Part shown: piece by piece, positions 13,203 through 51,321 of the stretch | Numbering within the stretch: position 1 is the first letter of the stretch | Layout: every line of letters begins with the position of its first letter | Assembly: GCF_053078305.1 (NCBI RefSeq) | Contig: NZ_CP166879.1 | Length of the DNA stretch: 64,000 bases | Strand: one strand, 5' to 3' | The notes under the pieces: model-generated | What the model was told of the DNA's origin: nothing | Database searches by the model: none | The model's input: the letters and a program-made list of their open reading frames with translations, nothing else | Program-made: the position numbers and the translations under genes

Positions 13203-13277
13203 GGTATTTACCTCTCTGAGTCATGACGATGACACTGACAAATCAGGTGATAAAACGTAAAAGGCGCAGAATAGCCG

Positions 13278-19260: not shown

Positions 19261-19361
19261 TATTCTATTGTTTGGCTATTGCACGGACAAGAGAGACAGT
19301 AACGAAAACAGCGCTTTTGTGAGCAGACTCAGAGTCAGGGAGGGCATCAGTCACGACAGGT

Positions 19362-34000: not shown

Positions 34001-37000
34001 CGTTCTGCGACGTGACGGAAAGGGTTTTCCCTGCGGCCAGGGTACCGTAATTCGTGAGGGCAGCAATCAGTTTCAGTGTGACATCACCGGTGGCCACCAC
34101 CTGGCCCTGACCACTGAAGTCCTGAGCGTCAAGCAGCAGGTTGCCTGCACTGTACAGCCGCCCTGTACCATTTTGCAGCAGTGAACTGCCCTTGACGCCA
34201 AGCCCGGAGGTTCCCAGCAGGGTACCACTGTTGCTGAATGTGTGGTAATTCACCAGCAGGTCCGCCCCCTGAAGCGTACCGGTATTATTCAGCGTGGTTC
34301 CTTTAACGTCGGCACTGCCGGTGGCAAGTACGCGTCCGCCGTTGACAGTATTCACCACATCCAGCAGCAGGGTGGCAGCCTGTACCAGTCCGCTGCCGGT
34401 GTTCGCCAGCACCTGCGCCGTCAGCGTGAGGTTGCTGCCGGAGAGGATTTTGCCGTCGTTCTGCAGACGGTCTGTGGCGTTCAGGGAAAAACCGCCACCA
34501 CCCTGTATCGTGCCCTGGTTACTCAGGGTCGCAGTACTGACATTCAGTGCATTCCGGCTCATCAGAACACCACCGGAACGGTTGTTCACGCCACCGGAGG
34601 CGGCCAGCGTCAGCGTTTCGCCCTGCAGATGCCCGCCGTTTGTGAGTTGTCCTGCCGTGATGGTGGTGGCATTTCCCTGTAATTGCCCGTCGTTTGTGAC
34701 ACTGTCTGCCTTCAGCGTCAGCACACCTGCACTGAGCAGTTTTCCGTTCGCCTGATTGTTCAGCGTCTGATTCACCGTGAGCGTGAGAGTATCCACACCG
34801 GTGATGTCACCCGCACTGGTCAGTGAGTTCGCCTTCAGGGTCAGATTTTTTGCAATCCATTGTCCGCTGTTGCTTAAATTCAGTGCACTGAGCGCCATTT
34901 CACCGTTCGAGGTGACTTTGCTGCCTGCTGTGCTGACGAGCTCACCCGTCAGACGTGCAGTCAGGCTGTCAGCCGCCTGGATCGCCCCGCTGTTTGCCAG
35001 ACTGTCTGCGGTGATCAGCACCCGTTTGCCCTGCCAGTGTCCGGAACTGGTAATACTGCCTGCGGTGATTGTCAGATCGCCGCTGGTCAGCAGTGAACCG
35101 CCGTTATTCATCAGCGCAGGTTGAGGGGATGCCATATCCATACGGGCGGCAAGCGTCAGCGCGGCTATCCCGGTGAGCGTGCCACTGTTGGTGACACTGT
35201 TCTGACAAATCGTGACATGGTTACCCTGGACAGTGCCGCGGTTATCCAGTGAGTTTCCATCAAGAGAGAGCGTGCCGGCCGAAAGCAGACTGCCCCGGTT
35301 GTCCGTGGTGGCTGCGTTCAGCGTGGTGTCACCCTGGCTCATGATATCGCCGGTACTGGTCAACTGACCGGTTGCCGAAGCAGTAAGGTTACCGGTTGCC
35401 AGCACGGAACCACGGTTCGCCCATCTGTCCGCCTGCACGGTGAGATTCTGTCCCTGCGTGGTCCCTGCGGTATTCAGTGTTTTACCCCGGAGGGAGAGGT
35501 CGCCCGCCGTCAGCCAGCGTCCGTTACGGCCCTGTGAGAGGGTGTCGCCTGCAAGCGCCAGTGCACCGGCGCCCTGCAACAGACCATCACCATCCAGCGT
35601 GGTCGCCCTGACGTTCAGCGTGTCAGCGATGATTTTTCCCGGATTGCTGAGGGAGGCAGTGTTTAACGTTAAACCATTATCACCGGTGATAAGCCCGCTG
35701 TTGCGGATGTCCGGTATATCCAGCGTCAGGTCTGCAGCACTGTACAGCGTGCCGTTCTGCTGATTATCAAGCCGCTGTGTGTTAACGGTGAGTGAGGCCT
35801 TCCCCTGCAACAGACCGCTGTTGGTCAGGGTCTGTGACTGTGTATTCAGGGCGGAAGCAACAAGTACGCCGCTGCTGGTCAGTTCCGGCGCACTGAGGCT
35901 GAGCGACGGGGCGCTGCTTTTCCCGCTGTGGGTGAGCTTTTCACTGGCGTTCAGGGTGAGGATGTCTCTGGCAGCCTGTGTTCCGTCAAGCTGTGCGTTC
36001 TGCACATCCACGCTGACACTGTTGCCCTGCGTCTGCGCAGTGGTCGTGGTCTTCAGACTGTTGCCTTTTACAGACACCGTGCCACCCGCACTGGTTTCAC
36101 CCGCCAGCGTGGAAGACGCGCTGTTCAGCATGAGGTTACCGTCACTGTGCGTGACTGATTTTTCTGTGGTGGTCAGTGTGTCTGCAGAAGCCACAAGTTC
36201 CTTTGCCCCGGAGAGGGTACCGCTGTTGTTTATCTGCGTGGCACTGAGCGTCAGCACGTCATCGCTGACGAGTCTGCCGCGGTTTTCAAGTGTACCGCTG
36301 ACGGTAACGCGGGCACTGTCTTTTGCACCGGCATCACCGGACAGTGTGGCATTGCGGGCGCTGATATCGAGTGTGCTGCCACTTTTAATACTGCCGGTGC
36401 TGGTCAGGTCAGTGGCGGTGACTTTCAGGCCATTCCCCTGGACGGTACCGGTATTACTGAATGTCCCGGTTTTCACCGTGGCATCGCGCCCGGCAACCAG
36501 TGTCCCACCGTTGTTCAGGCTGCCGGAGCTGACGGTGAGTGTTTTCCCGGCAACGCTGCGGCCTTTCAGTGTGGTATCCCCCGTGGTGGTAAGGGTGACA
36601 TTTTCAGCTGCATTCACGGCCCCGGAAGTCTGGTTCAGGTGCTGTGCACTGAGCATGGCGTTCTGTCCGGCAGTCAGTTCACCACCGTTCTGTACAATCT
36701 GCCCGGATGAAGACAGCACCAGATTTTTATCCGTCACCAGACGGGACTGATTCAGTGTCAGTCCCGTTGTCCCGGTAACGCTGAGATTTCCTCCGGCTTT
36801 GTTATCCCCTGAAAGTGAGACATCCGTTCCGGTTACGGTGGTACTGCCGCCGGCAAGGCTGTTCTTCAGGACCAGTTTTCCGGAACTGCTCAGTATGATA
36901 TCGCCCTCCCGGGCATAAAGGTTACCAAGATTAACCCCGACACCATTTTCAGTGGAGGTCAGATGAATACGCCTGGCGTACATTCCACCGAGCGCGCCAG

Positions 37001-37733
37001 TATCAACGGCAACTTTCGGCACATCACCTTCGCCCTTCAGGGCACTGACACGACCATCTGCAGTTACACGGTTAGCACCTGCAGTGACAGTTAAATCCTT
37101 CGCATGAAGCGCGGCATTCACTTCCGTTGCACGGGCAATAATGGATACGGCATCGCTCCGGGTGCCGTCCAGGCCCGCGCCATTGATGGTGATACTGCCT
37201 TCAGTCACCTCCAGCGCCTGCAGGCTGCCGTCGGCATTCATCACAGGTCTGCCCGTGGTGAGCGTCGCGTGCGGCGTGTTGATAAAGCCACAGCCGTCAC
37301 AGGTGATACCATACGGGTTGGCAACCATCACATTCGCCGCTTTGCCGGCCACTTCCGTATAGCCCTGCAGCAGTGAACGCTTACCGCCGGTCACTTCGTT
37401 GATGATACCCTTCGCTTCCCCGCCCGCTTTCAGGTTCGGGTTATTCTGTATCAGTCCACCAAGCTGCGTCGGATTAAGCTTACCGGTGGCATTATTGAGA
37501 ATCAGCCCTTCCTTCCCGACGTTGTAATCCGTAAACCGGTTATGCGAAATCCCGGCCCCGTCCGGCGTGGCAATGTTCACGACCGGCACACCATTTGCCG
37601 CTTTATCCATTCCGGCCCCGTTTTGTGGGGTGATGACGGCCCCCACAGCCGGTAACAACGGCTGCCCGGCGATAATTGTACTGATAAGGTAACTCAGCAG
37701 GCGGTAAGTGAAGCGAACAGGAGGCTGATGCAT
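28023..37733 (-). CDS. cdiA: CdiA contact-dependent inhibition exoprotein (TPS family)
   Basis: 3236 aa; extended signal [48 protein letters not shown]; TPS domain [26 protein letters not shown]; long filamentous-haemagglutinin-type repeats; VENN motif at 28956..28967 followed by a 310-aa C-terminal toxin region. Confidence 0.92.
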
Positions 37734-37745
37734 GGTAATAATCCC

Positions 37746-39513
37746 TTAAAACGCGACGGCAACGCGCCAGTAAACCGTGAGATGGTCAGGGGCAAGCCAG
37801 TCCGGGTAAACAAGAGGCAGTCCGGCGGTGAACGAACCGGAAACATGACCACTGGTGGTGCTGAGCCCGGCAGCAGCACCCCACAGCGTGCCGGACGAGT
37901 ACGGGTCATCGCTGTCAGAGTGCAGCCAGCCGCCGTCCAGTGCAGTCACTGCACGGACTGTCCCCACATATGGCAGGGAGAACAGAGACCAGGACAGCTC
38001 ATTTCGCAGATAACCGCCGTTATTACCGGAGATATACTGCTCCTTAAAGCCACGCACTGAACTCTCACCCCCGAGGCTCAGTTGTTCCACACCATGAAGA
38101 CGGTCCGGTGACCACTGGGCATAAGCGCTGGTCAGCCACCACACCCTGTCCGTGACGGGGCGCTGAAAACTGGCGCTTAATGACCATTTCCGGAACTGAT
38201 TTACGGGCAGGTCTCCCCTTTTCCCGTGGTCGCTTTCTGCGCCGAACCAGGGCATCCCCCGTGTGAATACCGGATTCAGTGTTCCGACACCCCCCAGAAA
38301 CTTGTGTGTGTGATTCAGCCCGACAGAAAATGAAGTGAGTTTACGGCTGCTGCCCTGAAGCAGAACATCATCCAGATAATTGTGAATAATGCGGTGCTGC
38401 AGACCTCCGGTCAGTGCTGTCTTCATGTCCCCGTTACGGAACAGGACATGCGACAGTCCCAGCCGGTGAGTCTGCAGGTCTCCCGTGGAACGCCACCGCC
38501 AGCCCCGGTTATCAATGGTGCTGAGGTAGTCACTCCATGAATACGTGTAATCCACCAGGGTATAGCCATACGGCAGACTGACACCGGCGGCAAAATTCCT
38601 CGCATCATGTGACACCGAAAAGTCACTGCTCCGTCCTCCGCTGACAAACCAGTTGTCAGCCAGCCCCAGAGGATTATTAAAGGAAAGGACTCCATTTAAC
38701 TGCCCCGTACCGGTATTCTTCTGTCCGCTGTTGTCGATGCCCACGCTCCCTGTGACAGGCCATTCCGGCGATGCCGTCAGTGTCACCACCGACCATCCCT
38801 CACGGTCACCGGGCGATATTTCAATCTGTACCGGCTCCGTACGCAGACGGTTAATCTGCTCCATCCCCTGCTCAATATCCCGCAGGTTCAGAACCTTCCC
38901 CTCCATTCCCGGGAAAACCATCTTCAGGGTGCGGGCAGGAAGGTCAGCGCCTTCCGCCCGGATTTGCTGCAGCCTGCCTTCCATGACCGTTATGTGCAGT
39001 ACGCCCCCTGAAAGGTCCTGCTCTGTCAGAAAGGCCCGGCTGGTGATATATCCCCGGCGTATATAGCCGTCCGTCACGGCATCCGTGACCGCGGTCAGCC
39101 CCGTGATATTCAGACACTGATTCACCCACGGTGCCACCAGTCTGTCGGTTTCTGCAGACGTCAGTCGGGTGGCCCCACTGACAACAATGCGTGACACCGT
39201 AAAGCAGGGACCGTCAGTACCGGCAGACATTTTCCGGAGACGGTATGACAGTCAGCGGCGCACTGCGCTCCAGCGCATCACGCTGACGCTGGTTTTCATC
39301 CAGCAACTGCTGCTGTTGCTGCTGAATGGCACTGCGGTCACCCGGAGACAGCATGGCAGCCGGAGACGAAAACGAAAGAATGCAAAGGCAGGAGAGGAGG
39401 GGAAAATAGCGTGCCACCGGAGAGAAAGTGCGGAGCTTAAATGCGCACTGGCCGGAAACCATACCAGGCAACAACGTTCTGTTCGCCAGTAAGTTATCCT
39501 GCCGGTGCTGCAT
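37746..39513 (-). pseudogene. cdiB: cdiB (TpsB outer-membrane transporter) apparently split by a frameshift
   Basis: N-terminal 99-aa ORF (39214..39513, …PGDRSAIQQQQQQLLDENQRQRDALERSAPLTVIPSPE…) and 494-aa ORF (37746..39230, MSAGTDGPCFTVSRIVVSGATRL…) are in different frames and overlap at 39214..39230 around an A4 run. Confidence 0.7.
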
Positions 39514-39874
39514 ATTCTCCTCGTGGGGTATCCAGTGTAAATTAACGTAAGTGGAATGTCAGTGCTGAAATTTACACCCGATAAAAAACATACAGAAACA
39601 ATCCTGTTATGTAAAATCTGGAAAAATGTCAGAAATGTGATCGAAGTTGTGTTTTACGGAGGGGGAAAAGGAAAAAAGACATCCTTTGATGGTAAAAAAG
39701 ATGTTTCCTGCAGAGTAACAATCAGGAATGCAACACAAGTTCCAGTTCAGGTGTTGTGGATTTGAGTAAAAAAACAGTCATAACTCTCCTGAGAACCTGA
39801 AACTCCTCAGTGTGTTCTTATAAATGGAAAATGCGCAATAACGATGATTCCAGTCACTACTGATAACGCGTTTT

Positions 39875-39914
39875 GCGTATGCCGAACTGTGATCGATTCA
39901 GGTGTCATTTTGCA
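39875..39914 (+). repeat. Right copy of the imperfect direct repeat flanking the cdi module
   Basis: gcgtatgccgaactgtgatcgattcaggtgtcattttgca; see 26500..26543. Confidence 0.6.
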
Positions 39915-40100
39915 CGTTTCTCATCTTTGATGTAACCCACCATCCCTGACCTAGCATCGCAATAAAATTAAGTCTGAATAAAAATTACGACAATTTCACA
40001 GTTTCTGTCGATTGTGGCATTATCAGCAGCATCCACCTCCGGGGTTTACACCGGAGCCTGAACAGGTAAACTACCTGTTCATCCTGTTTATTATCCCTGA

Positions 40101-41000
40101 ATGCTTATGTCGCAGTTCGATTTTACCAGTCTGGATCCCTTTGCCCGAGCCGTTTCTCCTTTTGAGGAAATGGCGGCTTATGAGGCGTTATGGTCAGAAA
40201 AAGGCGCGACATTCAAAACTATTGCGGATAAATTTCGTGCAGCACCAACCGGCTCGCTTCCTTCTGACTTTGTCTCAGACAGCATTATTGCTGCTTTTAA
40301 AAACCGGCTGAAAGAAATTATCGCGCGTTACGATATTGACGATCTGGGGATACGTGTCCATGGGGCCGGAGAATATCCAGAAAAACTGCGGGATGCGCGG
40401 AACCCCATAGAACTTCTTTACTATCAGGGGTGGTGGGACCTGATTAACACTCGCTCGGTAGCTGTTGTTGGTTCCCGTAGAGTCTCTGAAGAAGGAGCAA
40501 AACGAACCCGCAAAGTCGTCAAATTTCTGGTTGAGGATGGTTTTACCATCGTTTCAGGACTGGCTGAAGGCGTGGATACCAACGCGCATCAGACGGCACT
40601 GGCTCTGGGTGGTAAAACGATTGCAGTTATCGGGACACCACTTTCACATCATTATCCCAGACAAAACAGTAATCTGCAGAAAAACATTCGCGACAACCAC
40701 CTGCTTATCAGTCAGGTTCCGTTTCATCGATACCTGGAGCAGGACTATCGGAGCAACCGAATATTTTTTCCGGAGCGAAATGTCACGATGTCTGCGCTGA
40801 CAGAAGCAACGATTATTATTGAAGCATCAGAAACATCAGGTACTCTGACTCAGGCACGTGCGGCACTTGCCCAGGGCCGAAAATTGTTTATTCTGGAATC
40901 CTGCTTTCGTAACCCATCAATTACATGGCCTGCCCGTTTTGAAGCGCAAGGGGCCATTCGGGTCAGGAATTACGAAGACATCAGGAGGCATCTCCGTTGA
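40101..41000 (+). CDS. DprA/Smf-like (DNA-processing protein A fold) protein
   Basis: 299 aa; VAVVGSRRVSEEGAKRTRKVVKFLVEDGFTIVSGLAEGVDTNAHQTALALGGKTIAVIGTPLSHHYPRQNSNL matches the DprA Rossmann-like core; stop overlaps the next gene's start (ATGA). Confidence 0.8.
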   Translation: MLMSQFDFTSLDPFARAVSPFEEMAAYEALWSEKGATFKTIADKFRAAPTGSLPSDFVSDSIIAAFKNRLKEIIARYDIDDLGIRVHGAGEYPEKLRDARNPIELLYYQGWWDLINTRSVAVVGSRRVSEEGAKRTRKVVKFLVEDGFTIVSGLAEGVDTNAHQTALALGGKTIAVIGTPLSHHYPRQNSNLQKNIRDNHLLISQVPFHRYLEQDYRSNRIFFPERNVTMSALTEATIIIEASETSGTLTQARAALAQGRKLFILESCFRNPSITWPARFEAQGAIRVRNYEDIRRHLR

Positions 41001-41623
41001 CACTTCGTCTGACTCTGATTGATGAACTGATACGTAAACAACATCATTATCTGGAGGATGGTGATCTGTGTTATTGCTTTGGCGAATACACAGCCCGACA
41101 AGGCGCTGCTTACAGCGAAACTAACCAGTTAATCATCAATCTTAAAAAGGGGTATGAACGTCGGGCATTCCCTGATTACCACTATAAAAAGGTTGCTATT
41201 GAGTATGTTGCTCAGATGCTCATATCAAATATCGGTAATCTTGAGGAATACACATTTGTTCCCGTACCACCATCCAAATGCCGTACAGATGCCGCTTACG
41301 ATGACCGTATGACAGAAATTCTGCGAATTGCGCAAACCTACGAACCCTGGCTGGATTACCGGGAACTGGTTGTGCAAAACGTATCAACAATTGCCTCTCA
41401 TACCGCAACAAACCGGCCCTCACCAGAAGCGATTATGGCAAACTACCAACTGGATGAACAATTACTGGAGGGATGCAGGCCCTGGATTGTTATTTTTGAT
41501 GACGTTCTTACTGCCGGTAGCCATTTTAAAGCGATGAAAAGCCTGATACTACAACATATTCCTGAAGCCTGTATACTGGGACTCTTTGTTGCCCGAACAA
41601 CCCGGGGAGCTCAAATTATTTAA
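40997..41623 (+). CDS. Phosphoribosyltransferase (PRTase)-like protein
   Basis: 208 aa; C-terminal WIVIFDDVLTAGSHF fits the type I PRTase PRPP-binding motif; translationally coupled to the DprA-like gene. Confidence 0.55.
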   Translation: MTLRLTLIDELIRKQHHYLEDGDLCYCFGEYTARQGAAYSETNQLIINLKKGYERRAFPDYHYKKVAIEYVAQMLISNIGNLEEYTFVPVPPSKCRTDAAYDDRMTEILRIAQTYEPWLDYRELVVQNVSTIASHTATNRPSPEAIMANYQLDEQLLEGCRPWIVIFDDVLTAGSHFKAMKSLILQHIPEACILGLFVARTTRGAQII

Positions 41624-41640
41624 AAAGGGTAAAGTACTCC

Positions 41641-44025
41641 TTAGAATGAAAGCCCTTCACCATCAGCCACAATCCTGTACCCCATCGCCTTATAACCCCG
41701 CTGGCGTTTATCCCACATTCTGAGCAGCACTGGATACGCGGTATCCACAAAATCAATGATCCTGACATCGCTTTTACCGGTATGCTCTCTGTGTAGACGT
41801 CCCGCATACTGCTGTAACGTCCCTTTCCATGACACAGGCATGGCAAGAATCAGCGTATCCAGCGGAGGGTGGTCAAATCCCTCACCAATAAGTCTGCCTG
41901 TTGACAACAAAATACGGGGAGAATCAGGAGGAAGAGCATTCAGCCCGGAAATCATCATAGTACGCTTTTTTTTCGATAATCGACTATGGAGAACAAAAGG
42001 CGACAATTTCAGTGTGTTCATCACTGAGGCTATATCATCCAGATGATCTGTACGTTCAGTCAGTACCAGAACTTTACGCCCCTGCCCAAAAGCTTTCATG
42101 GCTTCTTCAGCTATCGCCACCGTTCTGTCATGATCCAGAGCAATTTCTCTGAAAATATCCTGGATTCTCGCATCCGATGGTAAATGACCAGATGTAAAAC
42201 GGGAACGGGTCAGCACCTCCAGATTATGTGGGCTTTCCTTCGGGCGGGACGCTGTATGGCGAATGGCACCACAGTACATAAAAATAATGGGGTGCAGACC
42301 ATCCCGTCGGATTGGTGTTGCCGTCAGGCCAAGCAGATATCTGGCATTCGTTTCCTTCAGAATCGCAGAAAATGAAACCGCGCCAATATGATGGCACTCA
42401 TCCACAATGATTTGCCCATAATTCCTGACCAGAGGTTCAACTTCTCCGTGTCTGGATATGGACTGCACCACCGCAATATCAATATTGCCACAGGGTTTAT
42501 GTTTCCCTCCCCCGATAATACCAATACTGTCACCGGCCTGCAGAAACACCGCGAGACGCTCCTGCCACTGCTTCAGCAATTCAGTCCGGTGTACCAGTAT
42601 CAGTGTATTCACTTTCCGTCTGGCAATCACTGCCGCTGCGGTAACTGTCTTACCAAAAGCCGTTGGCGCACAAAGCACACCAGTGTCATAACGGAGTAAT
42701 GCCGAAACGGCCTCTTCCTGCTCCGCTCTGAGGTTTCCCATAAAAACGGCATTACATTCCGTCCCGGCAAATCGTTTATCGATTAATTCTGCAGCAATAT
42801 TGTTGTCCCTAAGGAAAGATAATACGCTGTCCAGACATCCCCGGGGCAACGCAATGTGTTGCGGGTAATTCTCCGCACAACCTATAACACGGGGCTTATT
42901 CCAGACTGACATACGCATTGCCTGAGCCTTATAAAACTCAGGGTTCGGAAATGCTGCCAGCCGAATAAGTCGGTTAATCAGCACCTGAGGTAATTGCGCT
43001 TTTTCGAAATAGATCTGATTTGCCAGCGTGATTTTCAGCGGTTCAGCAACAGCAAGATTCAGTCTGTTTCCTGATGATTTTTTCCCTTCCCATGGCGTAC
43101 CCAGGTCTTCTTCGTTGATAAAGTTCACATCCAGAGGATGGATACTTCCTGTAGCCCGTAATATCGTCGGTTCAATATCCTGCACATTCATCGGGAGCAC
43201 CGACGCAAGAAAAGCCCACTGATCAGGATGAGGCTGGAAATTCATATCAACAAAAACACTTCCCCCCGATGCACGCGGTCTTTTTTGCAGAGGTAACGCG
43301 ATAAGATTACCAAATCCTCCTTTTGGCATCGTATCCTGATTAGGAAATAATCGGTCATAAGAACTCAATTGCAGCTGTCGGGTCCGGCTGCACGTATAGC
43401 TAATAACAGCAGTCCCCAGACGGCGAGCTTCGCGGGCCGAAACTCGTGAAGCAAAAAATATCCAGACATGCGCTCCCTGACGTGAGCGGGATATTTCCAG
43501 CACAGCGGGTACACCCAGCTCATCACAGGCTCGCATGAACGCGGATGCATCCTTCTGCCATTCAGCTTCATCAAAATCAACAGCCAGAAAATAACAGGAA
43601 TCATCTTCCAGCAACGGATATAACCCGGCAGTATGCGTGCCTGCCAGATGCTGGTAGATGACAAGATCAGATACAGGAATCAACTGACGGTGAACGCAGT
43701 CCCCACATTTTATCCGGGGCTTACCGCATATTCCCAACTGCCATTCGTTAGCGCAGGCCGGCGAGTACCCTGATTTGCCGCTGGTTTTACTTTCCCATCT
43801 AAGTGCCCATACATCATCACGCCCACGAAACAACCGACGAAATAATGCAACCTTCTCGTCGGTGGATAATACAGAAACGCGCTGCACAGGAGTCTGCGGT
43901 TTACGTCTCCATTCAATCCCATGAGCTTCAAGTAATGAGACCAGACGGGCATTTTCTGCCCTCAATGCAGCTAATTCATCGCTGTCAGATTTATGAACCA
44001 TATTCGTTACCTGTATCCGATCCAC
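41641..44025 (-). CDS. Fusion protein: AEP primase-polymerase-like N-terminal domain plus SF2 helicase C-terminal domain (yfjK-position)
   Basis: 794 aa; N-terminal AVDFDE and SRSRQGAHVWIFF plus Cys cluster GICGKPRIKCGDCVH; helicase motifs CAPTAFGKT, VDECHH, TATP, QQYAGRLHR. Confidence 0.7.
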   Translation of the reverse strand: MDRIQVTNMVHKSDSDELAALRAENARLVSLLEAHGIEWRRKPQTPVQRVSVLSTDEKVALFRRLFRGRDDVWALRWESKTSGKSGYSPACANEWQLGICGKPRIKCGDCVHRQLIPVSDLVIYQHLAGTHTAGLYPLLEDDSCYFLAVDFDEAEWQKDASAFMRACDELGVPAVLEISRSRQGAHVWIFFASRVSAREARRLGTAVISYTCSRTRQLQLSSYDRLFPNQDTMPKGGFGNLIALPLQKRPRASGGSVFVDMNFQPHPDQWAFLASVLPMNVQDIEPTILRATGSIHPLDVNFINEEDLGTPWEGKKSSGNRLNLAVAEPLKITLANQIYFEKAQLPQVLINRLIRLAAFPNPEFYKAQAMRMSVWNKPRVIGCAENYPQHIALPRGCLDSVLSFLRDNNIAAELIDKRFAGTECNAVFMGNLRAEQEEAVSALLRYDTGVLCAPTAFGKTVTAAAVIARRKVNTLILVHRTELLKQWQERLAVFLQAGDSIGIIGGGKHKPCGNIDIAVVQSISRHGEVEPLVRNYGQIIVDECHHIGAVSFSAILKETNARYLLGLTATPIRRDGLHPIIFMYCGAIRHTASRPKESPHNLEVLTRSRFTSGHLPSDARIQDIFREIALDHDRTVAIAEEAMKAFGQGRKVLVLTERTDHLDDIASVMNTLKLSPFVLHSRLSKKKRTMMISGLNALPPDSPRILLSTGRLIGEGFDHPPLDTLILAMPVSWKGTLQQYAGRLHREHTGKSDVRIIDFVDTAYPVLLRMWDKRQRGYKAMGYRIVADGEGLSF

Positions 44026-44151
44026 TGAGGCACCACGGCAAAAATTCGGGTCCCCTACACTGATGACAAAGCCGCCCTCTGCTGCCTATTAACTCAAGCA
44101 CCTCCCAACAACTTACAGAAACTTAATTCTAATACCTAATACAGCTGTAAT

Positions 44152-44715
44152 TCAGTTGTGTCGTGGTCGGCCGCGGTTACTTTTTTCGGGAAGCCTGCTA
44201 CGGCCCAGAATAATACCGTGTTCTTTCTGATCTTGTTTAGCCAGGTAGCTGAGGGCGTAACGTAAGTCGTCTACCGCAGATTTATCACTATAGTGAATCA
44301 CGTGATCGATACGCACCGGGTATTTGTCTTTAGCCCGGCACAGATGAAAATAACCCTCCCCTTCCGTGATCCGCCTCCAGATATCCCCCAGTTGCCTGGA
44401 TGTCTGATAAGAGTTCTTGTGACGTTGTCCATCCAGATAGCCGATAAAATGAATATGAAGCCCTTTGTCTGGTGTATATTCCATTACCCAGTAATATCCC
44501 GCCAGCATCGTTTGGGTTTCACTAAGTAAACGGTATATTTCAATACACATACTGTGCTTACAGGAATGCCCGAAACTGGGCGTGTCTTTCCTGTAGGCAA
44601 AATCAATTCTGAAAGGTAACAGTTTAGAAAAACGTTGAAACAGACCTTCCATGTGTTCATTCACGTCTTTCAGAATCGTGAAATTCATTTCGTAATTGGG
44701 GTTAGCATTATACAT
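44152..44715 (-). CDS. YagK/YfjJ-family protein (inovirus Gp2-like)
   Basis: 187 aa; family recalled from CP4-6 yagK / CP4-57 yfjJ; lies between the yfjI-like and helicase genes as in CP4-57. Confidence 0.55.
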   Translation of the reverse strand: MYNANPNYEMNFTILKDVNEHMEGLFQRFSKLLPFRIDFAYRKDTPSFGHSCKHSMCIEIYRLLSETQTMLAGYYWVMEYTPDKGLHIHFIGYLDGQRHKNSYQTSRQLGDIWRRITEGEGYFHLCRAKDKYPVRIDHVIHYSDKSAVDDLRYALSYLAKQDQKEHGIILGRSRLPEKSNRGRPRHN

Positions 44716-45621
44716 TTTATAGTCCTTACTTTATAAAACTCACAGGAAGAGGAAATTACGTAAATGCTGAGGATACAGAAACGTCGTACCACGGCATTAA
44801 TAAACTGGGTAACCAGTATGCAGACAACCTGATAAAACTGTTTCGTATTACCTCATTACAGTAATGGGAGTAATACTTCAGAATACAGTGAGACTCTCTT
44901 AAACTGAGGACCAGTACGAATTACAATGGTAAAAACACACCTCATAGAATTAAGTTTAAGAAAGTACCATTCAATCACTTACAGGAAGTAATCTGATCTT
45001 CACAAAAGTCAGCTATCGAATAGCCACAGGCAACATCGCTATTAGTATTGCCGTACCATTAAGTAAAAACAGAGACTCTGCAGAGAGAGCCTACAGATAT
45101 TTAACCTCACAATAAGAAGATTATTTCATACAGAAAAGATTATATTTACCCATACTTATAAACTGTAACGGAGATATAACGTACGAACTAAAGACAATAT
45201 ACTCTAATAGTGTTCCGGTACGTAACTAGTGTTAAATACAAACCAGACATACATTTAGTGGATTAACTTTCTCAATATTACGCTATGAGTGTAGTAACAT
45301 AATTTACACATAACTAAACCCCATACACCACCACACTGTAGTATATGGGGATAGACGCATTACGCACATACAGAATACTCAGCATAAAGAGGAGTGACAT
45401 TACGATAAAAAGAGACAACATAACTCCCATTAATAATACTAATTAACCTAAATTATTTATTGAATACGAAAACAATGAGGGGGTCTCCTCATCCAAGACT
45501 AAAGCCAGCAATATCCTGAACAACACTCTATCCAATAGTAAACAATGGTTATACCAGTTATATTTGCTGACTGATCTGTACCAGAGTTCTGTAATACAAC
45601 AACGCTGACATGGTAAAAGCA

Positions 45622-45652
45622 TTAGTCTCCTCCGCAAGTAGCAGAGGAGACT
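45622..45652 (-). terminator. Candidate stem-loop terminator downstream of the yfjI-like gene
   Basis: Inverted repeat gtctcctc...gaggagac with 11-nt loop, just past the stop at 45678 on the minus strand. Confidence 0.35.
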
Positions 45653-45677
45653 ATATGTTACTCAACGATTAAGTCGT

Positions 45678-47132
45678 TCAGAGGTCAAAGTTAGGTGCGA
45701 CATACCACGTTTTGTCGTCAATAAACTGTACAACTCTGTTTTGCTCATACAGTAAATCCAGTAACCAGTTGAGTTTATCTTTTTTACGGAAACGGTTCGG
45801 ACCACGCTGTAAAATGTCATTTTTTCTCATACAGCGTATCCCCTTCTCAATGCAACAGCTTTTTATCCAGTTGAAAAGTTCAAGCTCCTCTGGAATGAGT
45901 CGCATAGGTACGGTCAGTGCAGAGTTTTCAAACGTTAACGGACTGGATAACCGAATATACTCATCGCCGTACCATATTGCTAATTCTCTCGCCATTTCAG
46001 CAGTGTAGGGGGAAATGTCACCTTCCTCACCGCTAAAATGGTGAATAAGCCCTGCCAGTCTTGCCATATACTCTGCATTTTTAGCAGCATATTCTCTGAA
46101 GTCTCTTAAAGGCCCCAGAACCGACATCTTCGATTCCACATTGTTGTAATAGTCCGTCCAGATTCTGGCTGCCTGAGGAGAAAAGTGAAGGCAACGCCGC
46201 TCTCCCCTCATAGCCAGGCTTTCATCAATGAGTTCATTTATCCTCTGTTCAAACAAATCCTGATACTGTGATGAATAATTATCTCCGGTTATTATTATCC
46301 TTGTCCCCTGCGTTGATGTTGGTTGACACATCAAAAACCTTGCATGATGTCCTGACGTTTTCACAAGTTCTTTTTTTCGTGTACAAAAACCTTTGTGGTA
46401 AACATCAGGCTGAACCATCACCGATATCGTCAGTCTTGGCTCCTTCAAAAAAATTCCGGGAGATGATTTCCTGTCGATGAAAAGAGAACCACCATCCCAC
46501 AAAGAGTTAAGTATTCCCAGTTTACTCATTGCCCGGCTGTCAAAAATTATCCCACCTTCACTGGATACAAGAGCAAAAGAGCGGTTGCTATCAGAATAAT
46601 ATTTTAACATTCCCTCTATCGTTGTATCATTAAAAATTGTTCGATGTATCTGTGGTGGAACAGGACACTTATTCAGATGTGTTTTAAGCTCTGATTCTGT
46701 TGTCTTATAATCTTTACCGGTACGAATCTCTTTATGAAGTTTTGACTCCAGTGCTTTTTGTTTTTGCGCCCATATTTCCTTTTCTGTACTGTAACTCTCA
46801 ACCAGTTTCGCGTATTCTTCCGCCAGGGCTTCATCCCTGAGATAAAATGCTTTCATAAACACTTTATCCACGGTCGTTTTCCTTTCACCAGAATCAGCCA
46901 GAATCATAGAGTAAATATTAGAGGACCCACGTAAATTTCCTGGTCTGCACACATCAACCTGATTCTGACAGGCAATTGACATCGCTGTTAATGCTGCAGT
47001 TATCGCCATAGCTATAGGTGTCTGTGTATTCTTTTGAGTTTCAATTATTGCATTTCTCGCCAGCGGTGGCATTGCATATATCGGACAAGGATTTTCTGGT
47101 GCAAGTAAGCACATAAATGCCTCTCTTTTCAT
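45678..47132 (-). CDS. DUF3987-type protein (YfjI-like)
   Basis: 484-aa ORF; follows alpA as yfjI does in CP4-57; family recalled. Confidence 0.6.
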   Translation of the reverse strand: MKREAFMCLLAPENPCPIYAMPPLARNAIIETQKNTQTPIAMAITAALTAMSIACQNQVDVCRPGNLRGSSNIYSMILADSGERKTTVDKVFMKAFYLRDEALAEEYAKLVESYSTEKEIWAQKQKALESKLHKEIRTGKDYKTTESELKTHLNKCPVPPQIHRTIFNDTTIEGMLKYYSDSNRSFALVSSEGGIIFDSRAMSKLGILNSLWDGGSLFIDRKSSPGIFLKEPRLTISVMVQPDVYHKGFCTRKKELVKTSGHHARFLMCQPTSTQGTRIIITGDNYSSQYQDLFEQRINELIDESLAMRGERRCLHFSPQAARIWTDYYNNVESKMSVLGPLRDFREYAAKNAEYMARLAGLIHHFSGEEGDISPYTAEMARELAIWYGDEYIRLSSPLTFENSALTVPMRLIPEELELFNWIKSCCIEKGIRCMRKNDILQRGPNRFRKKDKLNWLLDLLYEQNRVVQFIDDKTWYVAPNFDL

Positions 47133-47362
47133 TAATGGGTTAGTAAAGTAGCAGCAACTCCCGCTATAATAGCGAAATAGCTGCTGTTCAGACCTAATGT
47201 TCTGAGAAATACAGAATATCTGTAGATCTGATGTTTAATAAACCGATAAGGTTAATTCAGTTCATACTGTGTTATTTACCACGAAATATCATTCATGTTT
47301 CTCATTCTTAACACCTCCTAAAATTATTTCACTAACACCTTCCCCCCGGTCTTTTTCCTTTC

Positions 47363-47590
47363 TCAGGAATCAGCCAGAACCATAGTGTAAATATTAACGG
47401 GCCCACGTAAATTTCCGGGGTTGCACACGTCAATCTGATTCTGACAGGCAATTGACATCGCTGTTAATAATGATGTTGTAGTCATAGCCAGAGATGCTTT
47501 TTCATTGTGTTGAGTTTCAATTATTGCATTTCCAGTCATTGATGGTTGCGCATATACTGGATACGGAGTATCCGGTTTGATGTAAGACAT
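47363..47590 (-). pseudogene. Degenerate tandem duplicate of the 5' end of the yfjI-like gene
   Basis: 75-aa ORF aligns with residues ~7-80 of the 45678..47132 product; flanking DNA also duplicated (about 47330-47700 versus 46870-47230). Confidence 0.6.
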
Positions 47591-47695
47591 AAATATTTCC
47601 TTTTTTCGTAATAACTTTCGGTTATAGCAGCTATTTCCGCTACAATAGCAACAATAGCTGCTATACAGACTGGATATACTGAAAATACAGACAGT

Positions 47696-47944
47696 TCATC
47701 TGGTCTGTATCCAGCAGAGAAGGTCACTTAACAACCATCCGCAAGATTTCTTTCCGATAGACTTACGTGGTGGAAATGTTCCCTCCCGTTCAAGTTTCCA
47801 CGCTTGTGTACGAGAAATTGACGTGATCTCATATCGTTCCTTTTCACGTACCAGTCTGTCGCATTCAATCCCATAAGCTTTCAAAATGACCAGACGCTGT
47901 TCATCTGTTAATGGAAGCCACATACTACCCTCCTGATATATCAA
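47696..47944 (-). CDS. alpA: AlpA-family phage transcriptional regulator
   Basis: C-terminal ISRTQAWKLEREGTFPPRKSIGKKSCGWLLSDLLCWI matches the AlpA HTH pattern; true start may be an internal Met. Confidence 0.7.
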   Translation of the reverse strand: MIYQEGSMWLPLTDEQRLVILKAYGIECDRLVREKERYEITSISRTQAWKLEREGTFPPRKSIGKKSCGWLLSDLLCWIQTR

Positions 47945-48614
47945 TACTTTTTATTTCCGGCATGAGCATGAAATGACTAAGTTTCCCGGATAAACAATGA
48001 GTGAAAGTCACTATCATTCATCCAGTCAACACCTTGCAAATAAAATGTAATACCATGATTTTTATAGGTCAAAATACTGAATTACAATATTAAAATGGCT
48101 TTTAATAGAAAAAATAAAGACATATAGAGCCAAATAAAAACAAGCCGCGACCAATAAAAACAAAAAATTAATATTAAAAATCCATTATGACGATTTTTGT
48201 TGACTAAAATTAGGTTTGGATATATAAATAAATCCATGTAAAATTCAAACAAGGCATGGAGGAGTCGCAGGAAGGTGAAATATTTCCATCTAATTTGTGA
48301 TAATCATCACAAAAATAAGCTACAACAAGCGGAGGAAAAGACAATCTGTTGCTGAACAGACAGAAGCAGGCTACGAATGATCGGAAAATGAAGCAAATAC
48401 GCTTATACAGAAGACGCAGAGGTAACTGACGGAGACAATCACAATCAGGAGAAAATTATCGTAAATAATGTATAAAATCTCAGGATATAAACAAATGTAC
48501 ACAAGCTATCCACGTAATCAGCGGCTGGCTCAGGATTAACGTTTCATTTCAGTGGACAACATCGATTCTGTCTGACAGCGGACCAATATGTAGCAAGCAG
48601 AAACTTCTGACATC

Positions 48615-50252
48615 ATGGTAACTCGGACAATGCAACAAAAGTATCAGTATGATCGTGTTTTATCCGGCGAACTCCACCCATTCCCTGGCATATACGAGGC
48701 GGTTTCCGAACAAATCCTTTTGCTCATTTTTAAAGCACGTCAACTATATCAGGATCCAGAATATCGCCCCTGGTTTGAAGAACAGCACAGAGTACTCTCT
48801 GCATTACGTGCCAATACAGAGCTCCTGAGAATCTTTAGAGAACAAAGAAGCGCTGAAGAACCAAAGCTTACTATTGAAGAGTCTACCTCCCCCCAACCCA
48901 CTCCTTCTGCTCTTACAGATGCGCTTAATGTGATGTGCCATATATACAATGGTTTTGATGAAGGAAATATCAGTCTGAAAACCTGGGGGGCGATGCAAGA
49001 GGTACAGACAACATCAACCTTTATCAGCCCAGGACCGAGAACCTGGAAAACACCTGAACTGGCAAAGTTTGTAGGAGATGATTTATTTAATATTCTGACT
49101 GAATGTAAGGCCTGGAGTTCACCAATTCCAGCAGAAACCCGACAGGGGTATTGCCATCAGGATCTGTCTGTTGCACACTCCTGCACCTCAGAGTTACTGG
49201 CACACCTGAATCAATATCATGAAATTGATGAATCAGCAATACTTGCCAGAGTTATTGGTATAACAGTTAACGGATTCTACAAGAAAAATAATACAGACCT
49301 TCCAGAATGGCTATCCCCCTTTAAAGAGGAACATAAAATATTCAGAGATTGTCCGGAGCAAAATACCGGGGATGTAATCAGACGGAAAGAACAACTGTTG
49401 AAAACAGGACGTACAGAATTCGTGAATAATTTGTGTCGGGTCGCCAACTGGTATGAAATTGAGTCAATATACGATGAATACGTCCGTCTTTATGCCAATG
49501 AAATCATTGACTGGTTCAACAAAACCATGAAGTATTTTAAACCAACAGATTTTATCCGATATACATGGAAATTCGCAACAGTTACTCCGGATAAAGATAC
49601 AGAAACCGGGCATACAACTGCATGGGAAAAGGATTATTGCCAGATAACCATACAACGTGATGAACTTCTGAGGTTGATTCACACCAATACCCTTCAGGAT
49701 GCAGTAATTTATCTTTGTCATTGTCTGCAGAAGGAATACAAGAAATCATCCCAAAATGAGATAGAGTTCCCAGGAATAAAACCTCCGACATCAGAGAGTA
49801 AAATTAATATAACAAATAATATTAAATTTCATTCTCTCCTGGAGCTCAGTAAAGATAATGAGAAGCGTCTGGAAACATTTCAAAAATGGTATGAAAAAAA
49901 TAAAGTTTTGTTAGAAAGTCATAAACAAAAACGAACAGAGAAGATTGACGTTGCCGTACGACTTGTAGGGCTGAAAGCCTATGATCTGCATGAAGGGATT
50001 CCGGATAGTCCAAAACGAAAAGTTAAAGATGGCATAAATGAAGACATCAAAGCCGATACCAGTTTACGCCTGTCAAAGACAAATATAAGTGATACGTCGC
50101 TAAACCGTTATCGCCGCACTGTTAAGGAGATTATCAATAACGAAATTGACGCATTCCTGTTGGAACAGAAGAAAAAAAATAAAAGATTTCCCTACAGTGA
50201 AGATAGAGATGTGATTCGACCTTTATGGGGAAAATGCCTGACCGGGCAGTAG
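48615..50252 (+). CDS. Uncharacterised low-GC protein
   Basis: 545-aa ORF, A+T-rich, preceded by about 670 nt of AT-rich non-coding DNA; no recognised motifs. Confidence 0.5.
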   Translation: MVTRTMQQKYQYDRVLSGELHPFPGIYEAVSEQILLLIFKARQLYQDPEYRPWFEEQHRVLSALRANTELLRIFREQRSAEEPKLTIEESTSPQPTPSALTDALNVMCHIYNGFDEGNISLKTWGAMQEVQTTSTFISPGPRTWKTPELAKFVGDDLFNILTECKAWSSPIPAETRQGYCHQDLSVAHSCTSELLAHLNQYHEIDESAILARVIGITVNGFYKKNNTDLPEWLSPFKEEHKIFRDCPEQNTGDVIRRKEQLLKTGRTEFVNNLCRVANWYEIESIYDEYVRLYANEIIDWFNKTMKYFKPTDFIRYTWKFATVTPDKDTETGHTTAWEKDYCQITIQRDELLRLIHTNTLQDAVIYLCHCLQKEYKKSSQNEIEFPGIKPPTSESKINITNNIKFHSLLELSKDNEKRLETFQKWYEKNKVLLESHKQKRTEKIDVAVRLVGLKAYDLHEGIPDSPKRKVKDGINEDIKADTSLRLSKTNISDTSLNRYRRTVKEIINNEIDAFLLEQKKKNKRFPYSEDRDVIRPLWGKCLTGQ

Positions 50253-50338
50253 ATCACAGATGGGATAACATCCCGGTTATCCCCTGTTTGTTCTGCTTCA
50301 GGTTGCCAGAGCTCCAGGAACACGAGGCAATCGGCAAA

Positions 50339-50935
50339 TTATGCGGCTTTTCCATTAACAGATTCGACCACAAGAACAACACCGTGTTTGTTTCGATCAG
50401 GATGTTCACTCCAGATTTCTGATTCAGGAATACTTTCCCCATCATAGCAGATCCGATCACCATCAAACGGATAATACCGTGCGGAATCTGTATCTAAGAT
50501 AAACACCTTAAGATTCGTTGAACGACGCGCTATATGCTGCCAGAGGGCTTTACCTCCTTCATATTGCTCGTTATCACTTAATAGTATAACGCCTGCTTTT
50601 GTGGCTATTGTTTCATAAACAAACGTAGCAAGGCTAACATCACGTACAGCGCCATCGACAACAATCCCTTCAATCTGAGCAACGTCCTGTTCTTCCCAGA
50701 ATTTCCGGACAACCCCCCCTTCAAGCTGTGAACGACGCTGAAGCTCCAGAGTGGCAACAACCTTATAGCGAATATCACCATCAATAACAGAAGGTGCAGC
50801 TTCGATTACCGCAGCGAACGGAGTCTTTGGATCCCAGATGATCTGGTAAAGCACACCCTGAATAGTTACTCCATCCAGTATCGAAAAACGACGAGCTACA
50901 GTAGCAGGGGAGTAAGACATTGGAATGACAGCCAT
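50339..50935 (-). CDS. Uncharacterised protein adjacent to thrW
   Basis: 198-aa ORF convergent with the 545-aa gene; no recognised motifs. Confidence 0.45.
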   Translation of the reverse strand: MAVIPMSYSPATVARRFSILDGVTIQGVLYQIIWDPKTPFAAVIEAAPSVIDGDIRYKVVATLELQRRSQLEGGVVRKFWEEQDVAQIEGIVVDGAVRDVSLATFVYETIATKAGVILLSDNEQYEGGKALWQHIARRSTNLKVFILDTDSARYYPFDGDRICYDGESIPESEIWSEHPDRNKHGVVLVVESVNGKAA

Positions 50936-51235
50936 TTTATGGCCTAAAATTTGAAAACATCAGTATCAATACTGACCTCATCAGTCTGAGCATATATTGA
51001 TAAAGTTTTTATGTTTACACTCAATAAATACCTTGCTAAACAACTAATAGCGATGTCTACATTGCCATTCGACATGCTTACAATTTTTGTCAACAAGAAA
51101 GTGAATTTATATCAACGGTAAGAAGTAAACACGAGGACACCAAAACCAAATGTATACACTTTTGTGCTTTGTGTCCCCTGTGTGTACCCAAATGACAAAC
51201 TGCAAGAAAATCTAGGCACACACTTATCTAACTTA

Positions 51236-51291
51236 TTGATTTAAATGGTGCCGATAATAGGAGTCGAACCTACGACCTTCGCATTACGAAT
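51236..51291 (-). repeat. thrW-proximal att repeat (3' 46 nt of tRNA-Thr plus ttgatttaaa)
   Basis: Identical to 5333..5388. Confidence 0.85.
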
Positions 51292-51321
51292 GCGCTGCTC
51301 TACCAACTGAGCTATATCGGC
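51246..51321 (-). tRNA. thrW: tRNA-Thr (anticodon CGU)
   Basis: Reverse complement GCCGATATAGCTCAGTTGGTAGAGCAGCGCATTCGTAATGCGAAGGTCGTAGGTTCGACTCCTATTATCGGCACCA; 76 nt with CCA end; immediately downstream of proA. Confidence 0.95.

Follow-up and report, generated by a model that had tools for sequence, protein, structure and literature searches.

The open reading frame of a primase-polymerase fused to a helicase-like ATPase, located in the 64,000-nucleotide stretch of DNA analysed here (the window), is almost certainly iee, the gene for the IS-excision enhancer (IEE) of pathogenic Escherichia coli, carried on a thrW island. The gene is already known and is not a new entity: it was named in 2011, the activities of its product were published in 2023, and a specific PGAP/Pfam label exists. 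The strain carries an intact copy, which is useful for annotating the window; in STEC and ETEC, iee has been connected with genome plasticity driven by IS elements, including gene reactivation, deletions and operon formation.

Identity and limits of the gene

The window protein and the 786-aa protein of O157:H7 strain DEC4E are identical at 749 of 782 aligned residues (96%), and none of the 33 substitutions is catalytic. We take the DEC4E protein to be ECs1305, because its length, its residue numbering and its SpLE1-like context (an int-HTH-YfjI-Gp2 island) match. ECs1305 is the IEE of O157:H7 Sakai (AAG55274.1 in EDL933; AEP 'Z1568-like') and shares with the window protein the length, the two-domain plan, the positions of the catalytic residues and the upstream YagK/YfjJ-YfjI-HTH backbone of its gene; the O157 gene, however, lies on the SpLE1 element at serX/serW, whereas the window gene lies at thrW. 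Residues D142, D144, D216, H178, Y128, S171, Q175, G176, K451 and R735 carry the same numbers as in the published IEE (PMC9943667). An identity above 95% is common to 98.8% of E. coli IEEs (PMC9943667); the window protein falls within this group and has its architecture, a chain of 786 aa in which a primase-polymerase (AEP) domain at the N-terminus is fused to an SF2 DExH ATPase at the C-terminus. In addition, both homology arms published for the deletion of iee from O121:H19 strain 51104 recur in the window with 0 mismatches, at 43999-44028 and 41599-41627 (none expected by chance), and directly flank the coding sequence.

The reading frame is uninterrupted, as stated in a preliminary description of this DNA, but the GTG from which that description counted 794 aa is not the start. 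The ATG lies 24 nt downstream and is preceded at ~10 nt by AGG, while nothing resembling a Shine-Dalgarno sequence precedes the GTG. We consider ATG 44001 the true start, because the start annotated by PGAP for the identical SI-NP020 gene, the published length of 786 aa (PMC9943667) and the end of the published knock-out arm all agree on it. The features of the gene and of its surroundings are collected in Table 1.

Table 1. Coordinates of iee, its domains and motifs, and the surrounding island in the window
Feature	Position	Strand	Basis
iee (IS-excision enhancer) CDS, 786 aa, stop included	41641..44001	-	ORF, PGAP start, ortholog identity, knock-out arms
GTG-started extension of the mechanical ORF, outside the gene	44002..44025	-	no Shine-Dalgarno-like sequence before GTG
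AEP domain, residues 1-290	43132..44001	-	Pfam AEP-TOTE, PADLOC PrimPol, PDB matches; limits per PMC9943667
Four-Cys cluster CANEWQLGICGKPRIKCGDC, residues 83-102 (C83/C92/C99/C102), inside AEP domain	43696..43755	-	candidate metal site
AEP motif A/I AVDFDE, residues 140-145, metal ligands D142 and D144	43567..43584	-	each present in 104/105 members
AEP motif B/II SRSRQGAHVWIFF, residues 171-183 (S171, G176, H178)	43453..43491	-	H178 and G176 in 105/105 members
AEP motif C/III region SSYDRLFPNQD (D216)	43333..43365	-	D216 in 105/105 members; PMC9943667
SF2 ATPase core	41788..42735	-	ResIII lobe residues 423-565, Helicase_C lobe 639-738
YagK/YfjJ ('inovirus-type Gp2') backbone gene, directly upstream of iee	44152..44715	-	PGAP names
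YfjI-family DUF3987 protein, island backbone, predicted helicase	45678..47132	-	43% identical to K-12 YfjI
AlpA-like HTH regulator, island backbone	47363..47590	-	PGAP 'helix-turn-helix transcriptional regulator' at equivalent place
ShosTA toxin-antitoxin defence pair, convergent neighbour of iee	40101..41623	+	ShosA DprA-like 40101-41000, ShosT PRTase 40997-41623
thrW integrative island carrying iee, ~46 kb	5343..51321	.	tRNA, exact repeat, integrase, PGAP context
tRNA-Thr(CGU), island boundary	51246-51321		ARAGORN
Tyrosine recombinase of thrW island	5518-6873		integrase domain match

Domain organization

The N-terminal part of the protein matches the Pfam family AEP-TOTE (PF22548) with an E-value of 1.4e-97 over model positions 1-228 of 230 (nucleotides 43171-43857), the PADLOC PrimPol profile with 8e-141, DNA_primase_S of Pfam with 9e-8 and the PrimPol structures 7nqd/7nqf of the PDB with 2e-8. 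The profile match and motifs A (hDhD), B (sxH) and C (hD) place it in the AEP-TOTE/Z1568-like family. The AEP/PrimPol-like core that the preliminary description had recognized from AVDFDE, SRSRQGAHVWIFF and the Cys cluster is therefore real, but the ~400 aa assigned to it there are too many: the domain covers about residues 1-290, and in the AF2 model of the protein (pLDDT 87.5) residues 291-420 form a disordered linker and a small alpha/beta module ahead of the RecA lobes. In the ortholog, the double substitution D142A/D144A abolished the polymerase activity, and roles have been assigned to H178 and G176 of motif II (PMC9943667). The four cysteines, each kept in 101-102 of 105 family members, lie in a segment that is modeled with a pLDDT of 87-93 and has no regular secondary structure; they may constitute a metal site, and the biochemical paper on IEE (PMC9943667) makes no mention of them.

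The closest solved AEP core is that of the CRISPR-associated PrimPol (CAPP) from Marinitoga piezophila (PDB 7NQD/7NQE/7NQF), with the same DxD / sxH / hD triad. The published domain analysis of IEE arrived at the same best templates as ours, the Marinitoga PrimPol of the 7NQE type (HHpred probability 100%) and T4 UvsW (2OCA). CAPP differs, however, in having no fused SF2 ATPase and in being linked to CRISPR adaptation genes, and the window protein scored 86 bits against the NCBIfam cut-off of 200 for CAPP equivalence, well below it. A further relevant pair is AgaPP/AgaPH, a pAgo-associated PrimPol with a PriCT-DUF3987 helicase, which is borne on mobile elements, has MMEJ (microhomology-mediated end joining) and terminal-transferase-like activities and, as here, has a DUF3987 protein nearby. 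AgaPP is nevertheless a member of the BT4734-like AEPs, whose motif II has a Lys in place of the His, and is a polypeptide separate from its ring-type helicase; AgaPH unwinds DNA.

The C-terminal half contains the full SF2 motif set described earlier, with motifs I (GKT), II (DExH), III (TAT) and VI (QxxGR) distributed over two RecA lobes. The first lobe matches ResIII of Pfam (E-value 5.7e-24) and contains K451 and DECH 534-537, and the second matches Helicase_C (E-value 2.9e-7) and contains Q731 and R735; the motif residues are kept in 103-105 of the 105 family members. In the ortholog, substitution K451A abolished the ATPase activity (PMC9943667). The closest solved relatives of this part (residues ~320-780), by sequence as well as by fold, are XPB/Rad25, T4 UvsW and E. 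coli RadD, which have in common with IEE a ResIII-type lobe 1 with the DExH box, but are devoid of an AEP domain; the IEE ortholog, for its part, hydrolyses ATP but does not unwind DNA. No PriCT, D5_N or primase zinc-binding domain of Pfam was detected in the window protein. We also considered the replicative primase-helicases of mobile elements (pRN1 ORF904, P4 alpha, PICI Pri-Rep) as a class for the protein and rejected them, given its SF2 rather than ring-forming SF3/SF4/MCM helicase part, the missing PriCT/D5_N and the lack of unwinding by the ortholog.

Function of the ortholog and expected function of the window allele

IEE is reported to promote the transposase-dependent excision of elements of the IS3, IS1 and IS30 families, as demonstrated for the O157 and O121 alleles only. 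Excision of IS600 from lacZ was tested by deletion of iee and plasmid complementation, and plasmid-borne iee, cloned with its flanking region, is sufficient to promote it in K-12. The AEP domain of the ortholog is a Mn2+-preferring, error-prone and distributive DNA polymerase that tolerates dislocation of both primer and template. In vitro, the full-length ortholog links 3' overhangs with 4 nt or more of common microhomology, and this MMEJ requires both domains; the SF2 domain hydrolyses ATP in a DNA-dependent manner and is required for the synapsis of ends. Since all catalytic residues are intact in the window allele, it should act like its ortholog and share these activities, as far as can be judged from the sequence.

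In the proposed mechanism, a transposase would nick or cut the end of the IS element, and IEE would then align microhomologies, for example those of the target-site duplication, and extend from them, so that the donor molecule could be resealed without the IS element and, at times, without some of the flanking DNA. The mechanism in vivo is debated, and two models have been published that disagree on the substrate of IEE: in the model of Calvo the substrate is a resected double-strand break, whereas in that of Chandler it is a replication primer that switches strand in the copy-out step.

Distribution of the family and alternative roles

Matches to iee were found in 1721 of 5426 complete E. coli genomes, in agreement with the published presence in >30% of assemblies (PMC9943667), and the gene is full-length in 683; in ~1040 records it is cut down to a 5' stump, or it is interrupted by IS insertions. 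A word-indexed search for homologs gave nothing beyond near-identical E. coli proteins; the diversity of the family was taken from a search of representatives and a genome scan. Among 105 homologs (35-71% identity), the catalytic Asp and His residues and the helicase motifs are kept in 98-100%, and the AEP similarity thus withstood the check on variable catalytic residues that the preliminary description had proposed for it. No full-length homolog was present in 50,697 phage records, and a phage-borne origin was rejected on these grounds. Members of the family occur in the defence islands of Proteobacteria, Cyanobacteria and Chlorobi.

In other bacteria the homologs adjoin BREX PglZ/BrxL, type I restriction-modification, Dsr1, IetS and AbiE genes, and further gene types found directly upstream of them are LmuB-like, RhuM/PDC-S05, YhcG/PDC-S02 and SIR2-APAZ-like. 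Such neighbours fit a role against mobile elements ('conflict'), and they hint that IS excision is possibly not the only role of the family. All-against-all clustering of neighbouring ORFs yielded no partner family in more than 10 of 74 loci. In 9-10 of the 74 loci the gene immediately upstream encodes a 185-aa protein, seen in some Proteobacteria; E. coli iee has no such partner. Equivalence of the 185-aa protein to YfjJ was rejected (hhalign probability 0.1%). Phmmer searches with YfjJ, YfjI, AlpA, ShosA, ShosT and two unknown ORFs of the window likewise detected no relatives beside the homologs in these 74 loci, and literature searches for 'TOTE' returned nothing relevant on the meaning of the acronym or on its defining components. 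These neighbourhoods could be read as those of a general defence-island immunity enzyme directed against replicating mobile DNA, phages or plasmids included and not copy-out-paste-in IS elements alone, with the Cys cluster as a metal site for de novo priming or substrate recognition and the 185-aa protein as an accessory subunit, but we find this extended picture of the IEE/AEP-TOTE family doubtful.

For iee itself, a corresponding proposal is that the product is mainly an anti-phage or anti-plasmid enzyme (a 'TOTE conflict system') whose polymerase and translocase serve to sense or act on replication intermediates of foreign origin, and that IS excision is a side activity. Pfam and PGAP both label the domain 'TOTE conflict system', the near-perfect PrimPol profile of PADLOC was drawn from a list of CRISPR-associated genes, and homologs lie directly downstream of defence genes such as a type I restriction enzyme and the other systems named above; E. 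coli iee moreover occupies the cargo slot that holds AbpAB and RnlAB in K-12 and adjoins ShosTA, and a different PrimPol, of Thermus, restricts the uptake of environmental DNA. However, residence in defence islands is circumstantial and fits an anti-transposon role equally well, PADLOC gives no system definition for iee, and no results of phage or plasmid challenge were found for this family, while the phenotype demonstrated needs a transposase and extends to certain IS families only. We therefore regard a primarily anti-phage or anti-plasmid function as unlikely; the defence role suggested earlier for this gene holds only if defence is taken broadly, to include action against mobile DNA in the form of IS elements.

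The in vitro traits of the ortholog, namely MMEJ, primer/template dislocation and the preference for Mn2+, resemble those of repair AEPs, and the unrelated mobile-element PrimPol AgaPP raises the survival of E. coli after Cas9 breaks. A general Pol-theta-like polymerase for double-strand-break repair or damage tolerance, benefiting the host independently of IS elements, is nonetheless very unlikely, as the effect in vivo needs an active transposase and concerns certain IS families only, and as the gene is patchy, island-borne and often lost or IS-disrupted, unlike a core repair function.

The thrW island and the genes adjacent to iee

The island is bounded by a tRNA-Thr(CGU) gene and, at 5343-5374, by a 32-nt repeat that reproduces the 3' end of this gene exactly, with none expected by chance. 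The YfjI-family protein of its backbone matches phrog_2373 'DNA helicase' with an E-value of 2.7e-59, and a DUF3987 protein is known to be a 5'-3' helicase (PMC11724360). The YagK/YfjJ gene, which has weak Pfam matches to REP_ORF2-G2P and YagK_YfjJ_C, precedes iee in all examined E. coli contexts that retain the upstream backbone; in a Nissle-derived strain this backbone is gone.

The gene had been placed in the yfjK position of an alpA-yfjI-yfjJ-yfjK array. It does follow the homologs of alpA, yfjI and yfjJ, and K-12 YfjK (AbpB) is, like the iee product, a large SF2 protein encoded next after yfjJ in a CP4-57-type island. However, yfjK (abpB) is encoded on the other strand and forms a pair with abpA, of which no homolog adjoins iee, and YfjK has no AEP domain. 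The two proteins align with only 23% identity over 148 aa around Walker A (BLASTP E-value 0.011), and we rejected their homology beyond this region.

The same backbone underlies the suggestion that the iee product is a primase-helicase that initiates replication of the thrW island, or of some satellite/PICI-like element, and would prime and unwind the excised element together with AlpA, YfjI and YfjJ. Although fusions of AEPs to helicases commonly replicate mobile elements, a PrimPol with a DUF3987 helicase is a demonstrated replication module elsewhere, and iee lies directly after, and is co-directional with, the alpA-yfjI-yfjJ homologs, this suggestion can hardly be maintained: the helicase part is of the monomeric SF2 type (XPB/UvsW/RadD-like) instead of an SF3/SF4/MCM ring, the ortholog does not unwind DNA in vitro, PriCT and primase zinc-binding domains are missing by Pfam, a YfjI or YfjJ neighbour is detectable at 0 of 74 homologous loci in other bacteria, full-length homologs are absent from the phage records, the gene is so often a 5' stump or IS-broken, and plasmid-borne iee yields the IS-excision phenotype in K-12 without the yfjI/yfjJ backbone. 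The gene is instead iee, whose ortholog stimulates transposase-dependent IS excision and carries out MMEJ in vitro.

On its other side iee converges, as described before, with a DprA/PRTase pair, whose end lies 17 nt away from the stop codon of iee. We identified the pair as ShosTA from the PADLOC matches of ShosA (E-value 4e-103) and ShosT (E-value 2e-50) and the 4-nt overlap of the two genes. ShosTA is a separate system, and its adjacency to iee does not look like functional coupling, because ~94% of the iee-positive complete E. coli genomes have only a 3' stump of shosT left and plasmid-borne iee, cloned with its flanking region, suffices to promote IS600 excision in K-12. Whereas most iee loci have lost ShosTA, the locus in the window retains it intact, as do just 39 of the ~683 iee-bearing complete E. 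coli genomes.

Identity of the gene convergent with ShosTA

The gene is iee, which is already named and biochemically characterised. The window protein is identical to its ortholog, IEE of E. coli O157:H7, at 749 of 782 residues (96%). The ortholog has 786 aa, with the SF2 domain at residues 291-786, and its functional residues comprise the metal ligands D142, D144 and D216, the nucleotide-binding residues H178, S171, Q175 and G176, Y128 (replacing the ribose-sensing histidine), K451 as the Walker lysine and R735 as the arginine finger (Calvo et al. 2023, PMC9943667); all of them occur at the same positions in the window protein. The gene has been deleted in O121:H19 with homology arms whose sequences were printed (Nishida et al. 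2022, PMC9397093). Both arms match the window with zero mismatches (0 matches expected by chance for either), TCAGTGGATCGGATACAGGTAACGAATATG ending on the ATG and AACCCGGGGAGCTCAAATTATTTAAAAAG lying just beyond the stop codon. Because the published residues, the overall identity and both deletion arms agree, we assigned the gene as iee. PGAP names it 'TOTE conflict system archaeo-eukaryotic primase domain-containing protein'.

The preliminary description had correctly recognised a single ORF, although its start, GTG 44025, had to be corrected to ATG 44001, which is used by PGAP and in the literature and gives 786 aa; AGG lies upstream of the ATG, and the GTG has no ribosome-binding site. The motifs quoted there are all present in the translation, and the fusion of a primase-polymerase to an SF2 helicase was an accurate call, the resemblance being real by profile searches. 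Pfam matched AEP-TOTE (PF22548; E 1.4e-97, 228 of 230 model positions) and DNA_primase_S (E 9e-8), and in the helicase half ResIII (E 5.7e-24), DEAD (E 2e-10) and Helicase_C (E 2.9e-7). PADLOC matched 'PrimPol' (PDLC01465, E 8e-141), and NCBIfam gave sub-threshold matches only, to CRISPR-associated PrimPol, RadD and XPB. Among solved structures, the N-terminal part matched the Marinitoga PrimPol entries 7nqd/7nqf and the C-terminal half XPB/Rad25 and RadD. The AlphaFold2 model, built with 38 homologs as input, was confident (pLDDT 87.5, pTM 0.80), and its best fold matches were T4 UvsW, XPB and other SF2 translocases.

Features of the window, with their positions
Feature	Position	Strand	Remark
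32-nt direct repeat of thrW 3' end	5343-5374 and 51246-51277		exact copies
Tyrosine recombinase	5518-6873		island end distal to intact tRNA
Methyltransferase/helicase pair	20406-25237	+	two large overlapping genes in cargo region
cdiB frame	37746-39513	-	split into 494-aa and 99-aa ORFs
ShosTA	40101-41623	+	intact, convergent with iee
iee deletion arm at stop codon	41599-41627
ORF	41641-44025	-	single ORF, start at GTG
iee	41641-44001	-	start at ATG
Cys cluster	43696-43755	-	residues 83-102, CxxxxxxxxCxxxxxxCxxC
iee deletion arm at ATG	43999-44028
ORF without assigned function	48615-50252	+	between thrW and AlpA-like gene
ORF without assigned function	50339-50935	-	between thrW and AlpA-like gene
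thrW, tRNA-Thr(CGU)	51246-51321		adjoins proA/proB; island boundary

Distribution of iee and ShosTA in E. coli

The gene has matches in 1721 of 5426 complete E. coli genomes and is full-length in 683. Its location in O157:H7 and O104:H4 is an island adjoining ycdU, with the order integrase, HTH, DUF3987/YfjI, inovirus-type Gp2 (YagK/YfjJ) and iee. The tail-to-tail DprA/PRTase neighbour reported previously was confirmed as intact ShosTA (PADLOC, E 4e-103 and 2e-50). The junction of the 3' ends of shosT and iee was found in 673 complete E. coli genomes, whereas only 39 retain an intact remainder of the operon (shosA and the first 300 nt of shosT); elsewhere IS66 or IS30 sequences have cut ShosTA back, and most lineages, O157 and O104 included, keep only a 3' stump of shosT beside fragments of these elements. 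The two were evidently acquired jointly and, since intact ShosTA is rare and the junction common, the window probably preserves the ancestral arrangement. As iee persists and works without ShosTA, we treat them as independent cargo.

In E. coli 2014C-4423 (NZ_CP027454.1; locus L091, 3001-9233) iee is interrupted by three insertions of IS3-family elements, two of them IS600 and the third a different member, and in published work on O121:H19 IS600 and IS1203 likewise accumulate in it; the elements removed by IEE thus appear to target iee itself recurrently. In about 1040 E. coli records all that is left is 250-370 nt from the 5' end of a diverged allele (84-87% identical); the surroundings of this remnant were inspected in two examples. 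In locus L005 (9997-10332) the remnant directly follows the YagK/YfjJ gene and precedes unrelated cargo (a 1652-aa AAA protein); in L004, from a Nissle-derived strain (10020-10230), it is surrounded by IS fragments, the aerobactin and pap genes are nearby and yfjJ does not adjoin it. The 5' end of iee marks a breakpoint at which deletion or recombination has recurred.

The wider family

When residues 1-412 were compared, without a profile, to 1.84 billion representative proteins, 1507 cluster representatives matched at E <= 1e-30; of those that are full-length, most have 780-830 aa. Scanning one genome per species gave at least 594 loci with homologs, the best 80 of which come from Beta-, Gamma- and Deltaproteobacteria, Cyanobacteria, Chlorobi, Gemmatimonadota and others. 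A homologous ORF could be called in 74 of these 80; the great majority are full-length fusions 54-74% identical to the query, and a few have a frameshift, are split or run off a contig end. Of 105 full-length members (35-71% identity), 98-100% retain the catalytic Asp and His residues D142, D144, D216 and H178, and likewise K451, R735 and the DECH box, in keeping with the AEP resemblance first proposed from motifs.

Four cysteines, C83, C92, C99 and C102, are each found in 96-97% of the same members. In the structural model these cysteines fall in a loop that lacks regular secondary structure and is predicted with confidence. The word cysteine is absent from Calvo et al. 2023 (PMC9943667), where zinc is mentioned for human PrimPol only, and the Cys4 cluster may be an uncharacterised metal site.

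The neighbouring gene families each occur in 10 or fewer of the 74 loci, and most neighbours that could be identified have defence or toxin-antitoxin functions: RhuM/PDC-S05, YhcG/PDC-S02, AbiEi/AbiEii, ParE, Fic, Schlafen-AlbA_2, BrxL, PglZ, HsdM, type I REase, Dsr1, IetS, an LmuB-like protein and SIR2-APAZ-like proteins. Full-length homologs are carried by 98 plasmids, and none was found in 50,697 phage records, in which the helicase half alone finds relatives of ~25% identity. This pattern of neighbours and carriers fits a host- or island-borne conflict gene, not a phage or satellite replication protein. A putative, primarily anti-phage role is supported circumstantially by the defence-island setting and by database labels, but the phenotype so far known needs a transposase.

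In 9-10 of the 74 loci (L022, L023 at 9331-9885, L024, L025, L037, L039, L063, L070 and L076) the gene immediately upstream of, and co-directional with, the iee homolog encodes a conserved protein of ~185 aa. Nine copies are 50-85% identical, with 45 invariant positions; Pfam gave a weak DUF6155 hint and nothing else, and PADLOC zero matches. Kinship with E. coli YfjJ was rejected, the two being unrelated. In some lineages this ~185-aa protein may serve as an accessory partner.

Activity and mechanism of IEE

[quoted passage not shown] Cloned iee suffices for the excision effect in K-12, and its deletion in O121:H19 abolished excision of IS600 from lacZ (Nishida et al. 2022, PMC9397093). In vitro, the AEP domain of the ortholog synthesises DNA distributively and in an error-prone manner, with a preference for Mn2+ and dNTPs, and D142A/D144A abolishes this activity; the C-terminal domain is a DNA-dependent ATPase, dead in K451A, without unwinding activity. 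Both domains are needed for the end joining carried out by the full-length enzyme, whose substrates are 3' overhangs sharing at least 4 nt of microhomology. Judged from its sequence, the window allele, since it keeps all catalytic residues, would be expected to have the same activities.

A general role in break repair is plausible from the reactions in vitro, but the effect in vivo is IS-specific. The replication initiator considered in the preliminary description is disfavoured, as the helicase belongs to the wrong class, the ortholog lacks unwinding activity, linkage to YfjI/YfjJ is missing outside E. coli and iee is often truncated. Two competing models have been put forward for the in vivo route of IS excision by IEE. 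Calvo et al. (PMC9943667) proposed that a transposase-made, resected break is joined through microhomology, whereas Chandler et al. argued that the affected families use copy-out-paste-in, which leaves no break, and proposed strand switching or primer slippage in the copy-out replication step. This mechanism, and a possible broader anti-mobile-element role of the family, on which the Cys4 cluster and the occasional 185-aa partner bear, are questions for specialists.

The thrW island

In the window, iee belongs to a ~46-kb composite island delimited by thrW and the distal copy of the 32-nt repeat. No integrase adjoins thrW itself; the integrase is distal to the intact tRNA, as in K-12 CP4-6. 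Leftward from thrW follow two ORFs without assigned function, an AlpA-like HTH gene, YfjI (43% identical to K-12 YfjI), the YagK/YfjJ protein, iee and convergent ShosTA, then cdiBAI, a methyltransferase and DEAD-helicase pair, and a CP4-type backbone (GTPase, Ag43, antirestriction, RadC, CbtA/CbeA). The likeness of the alpA-yfjI-yfjJ backbone to CP4-57 was rightly seen, but iee is not the equivalent of yfjK: K-12 yfjK (abpB) has abpA as its partner, is encoded on the opposite strand and matches in the Walker-A region only.

The split cdiB (ShlB/FhaC-type transporter) is intact (588 aa) in strain STEC17-190 and flagged as frameshifted by PGAP in SI-NP020. With cdiA (3236 aa, tRNA-nuclease toxin) and the immunity genes downstream apparently intact, the CDI system of the window may be non-secreting. 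The overlapping pair of the cargo region had zero NCBIfam matches at E <= 1e-5; their homologs are annotated by PGAP as site-specific DNA methyltransferase (753 aa) and DEAD/DEAH helicase (860 aa), and the two genes may form a type III-like or other restriction/defence module. Neither ORF beside thrW matched NCBIfam or PADLOC, and the 545-aa one had no match in any library tried. The 198-aa ORF matches phrog_7522 (unknown function; E 5e-124) and is broken by IS66 in SI-NP020.
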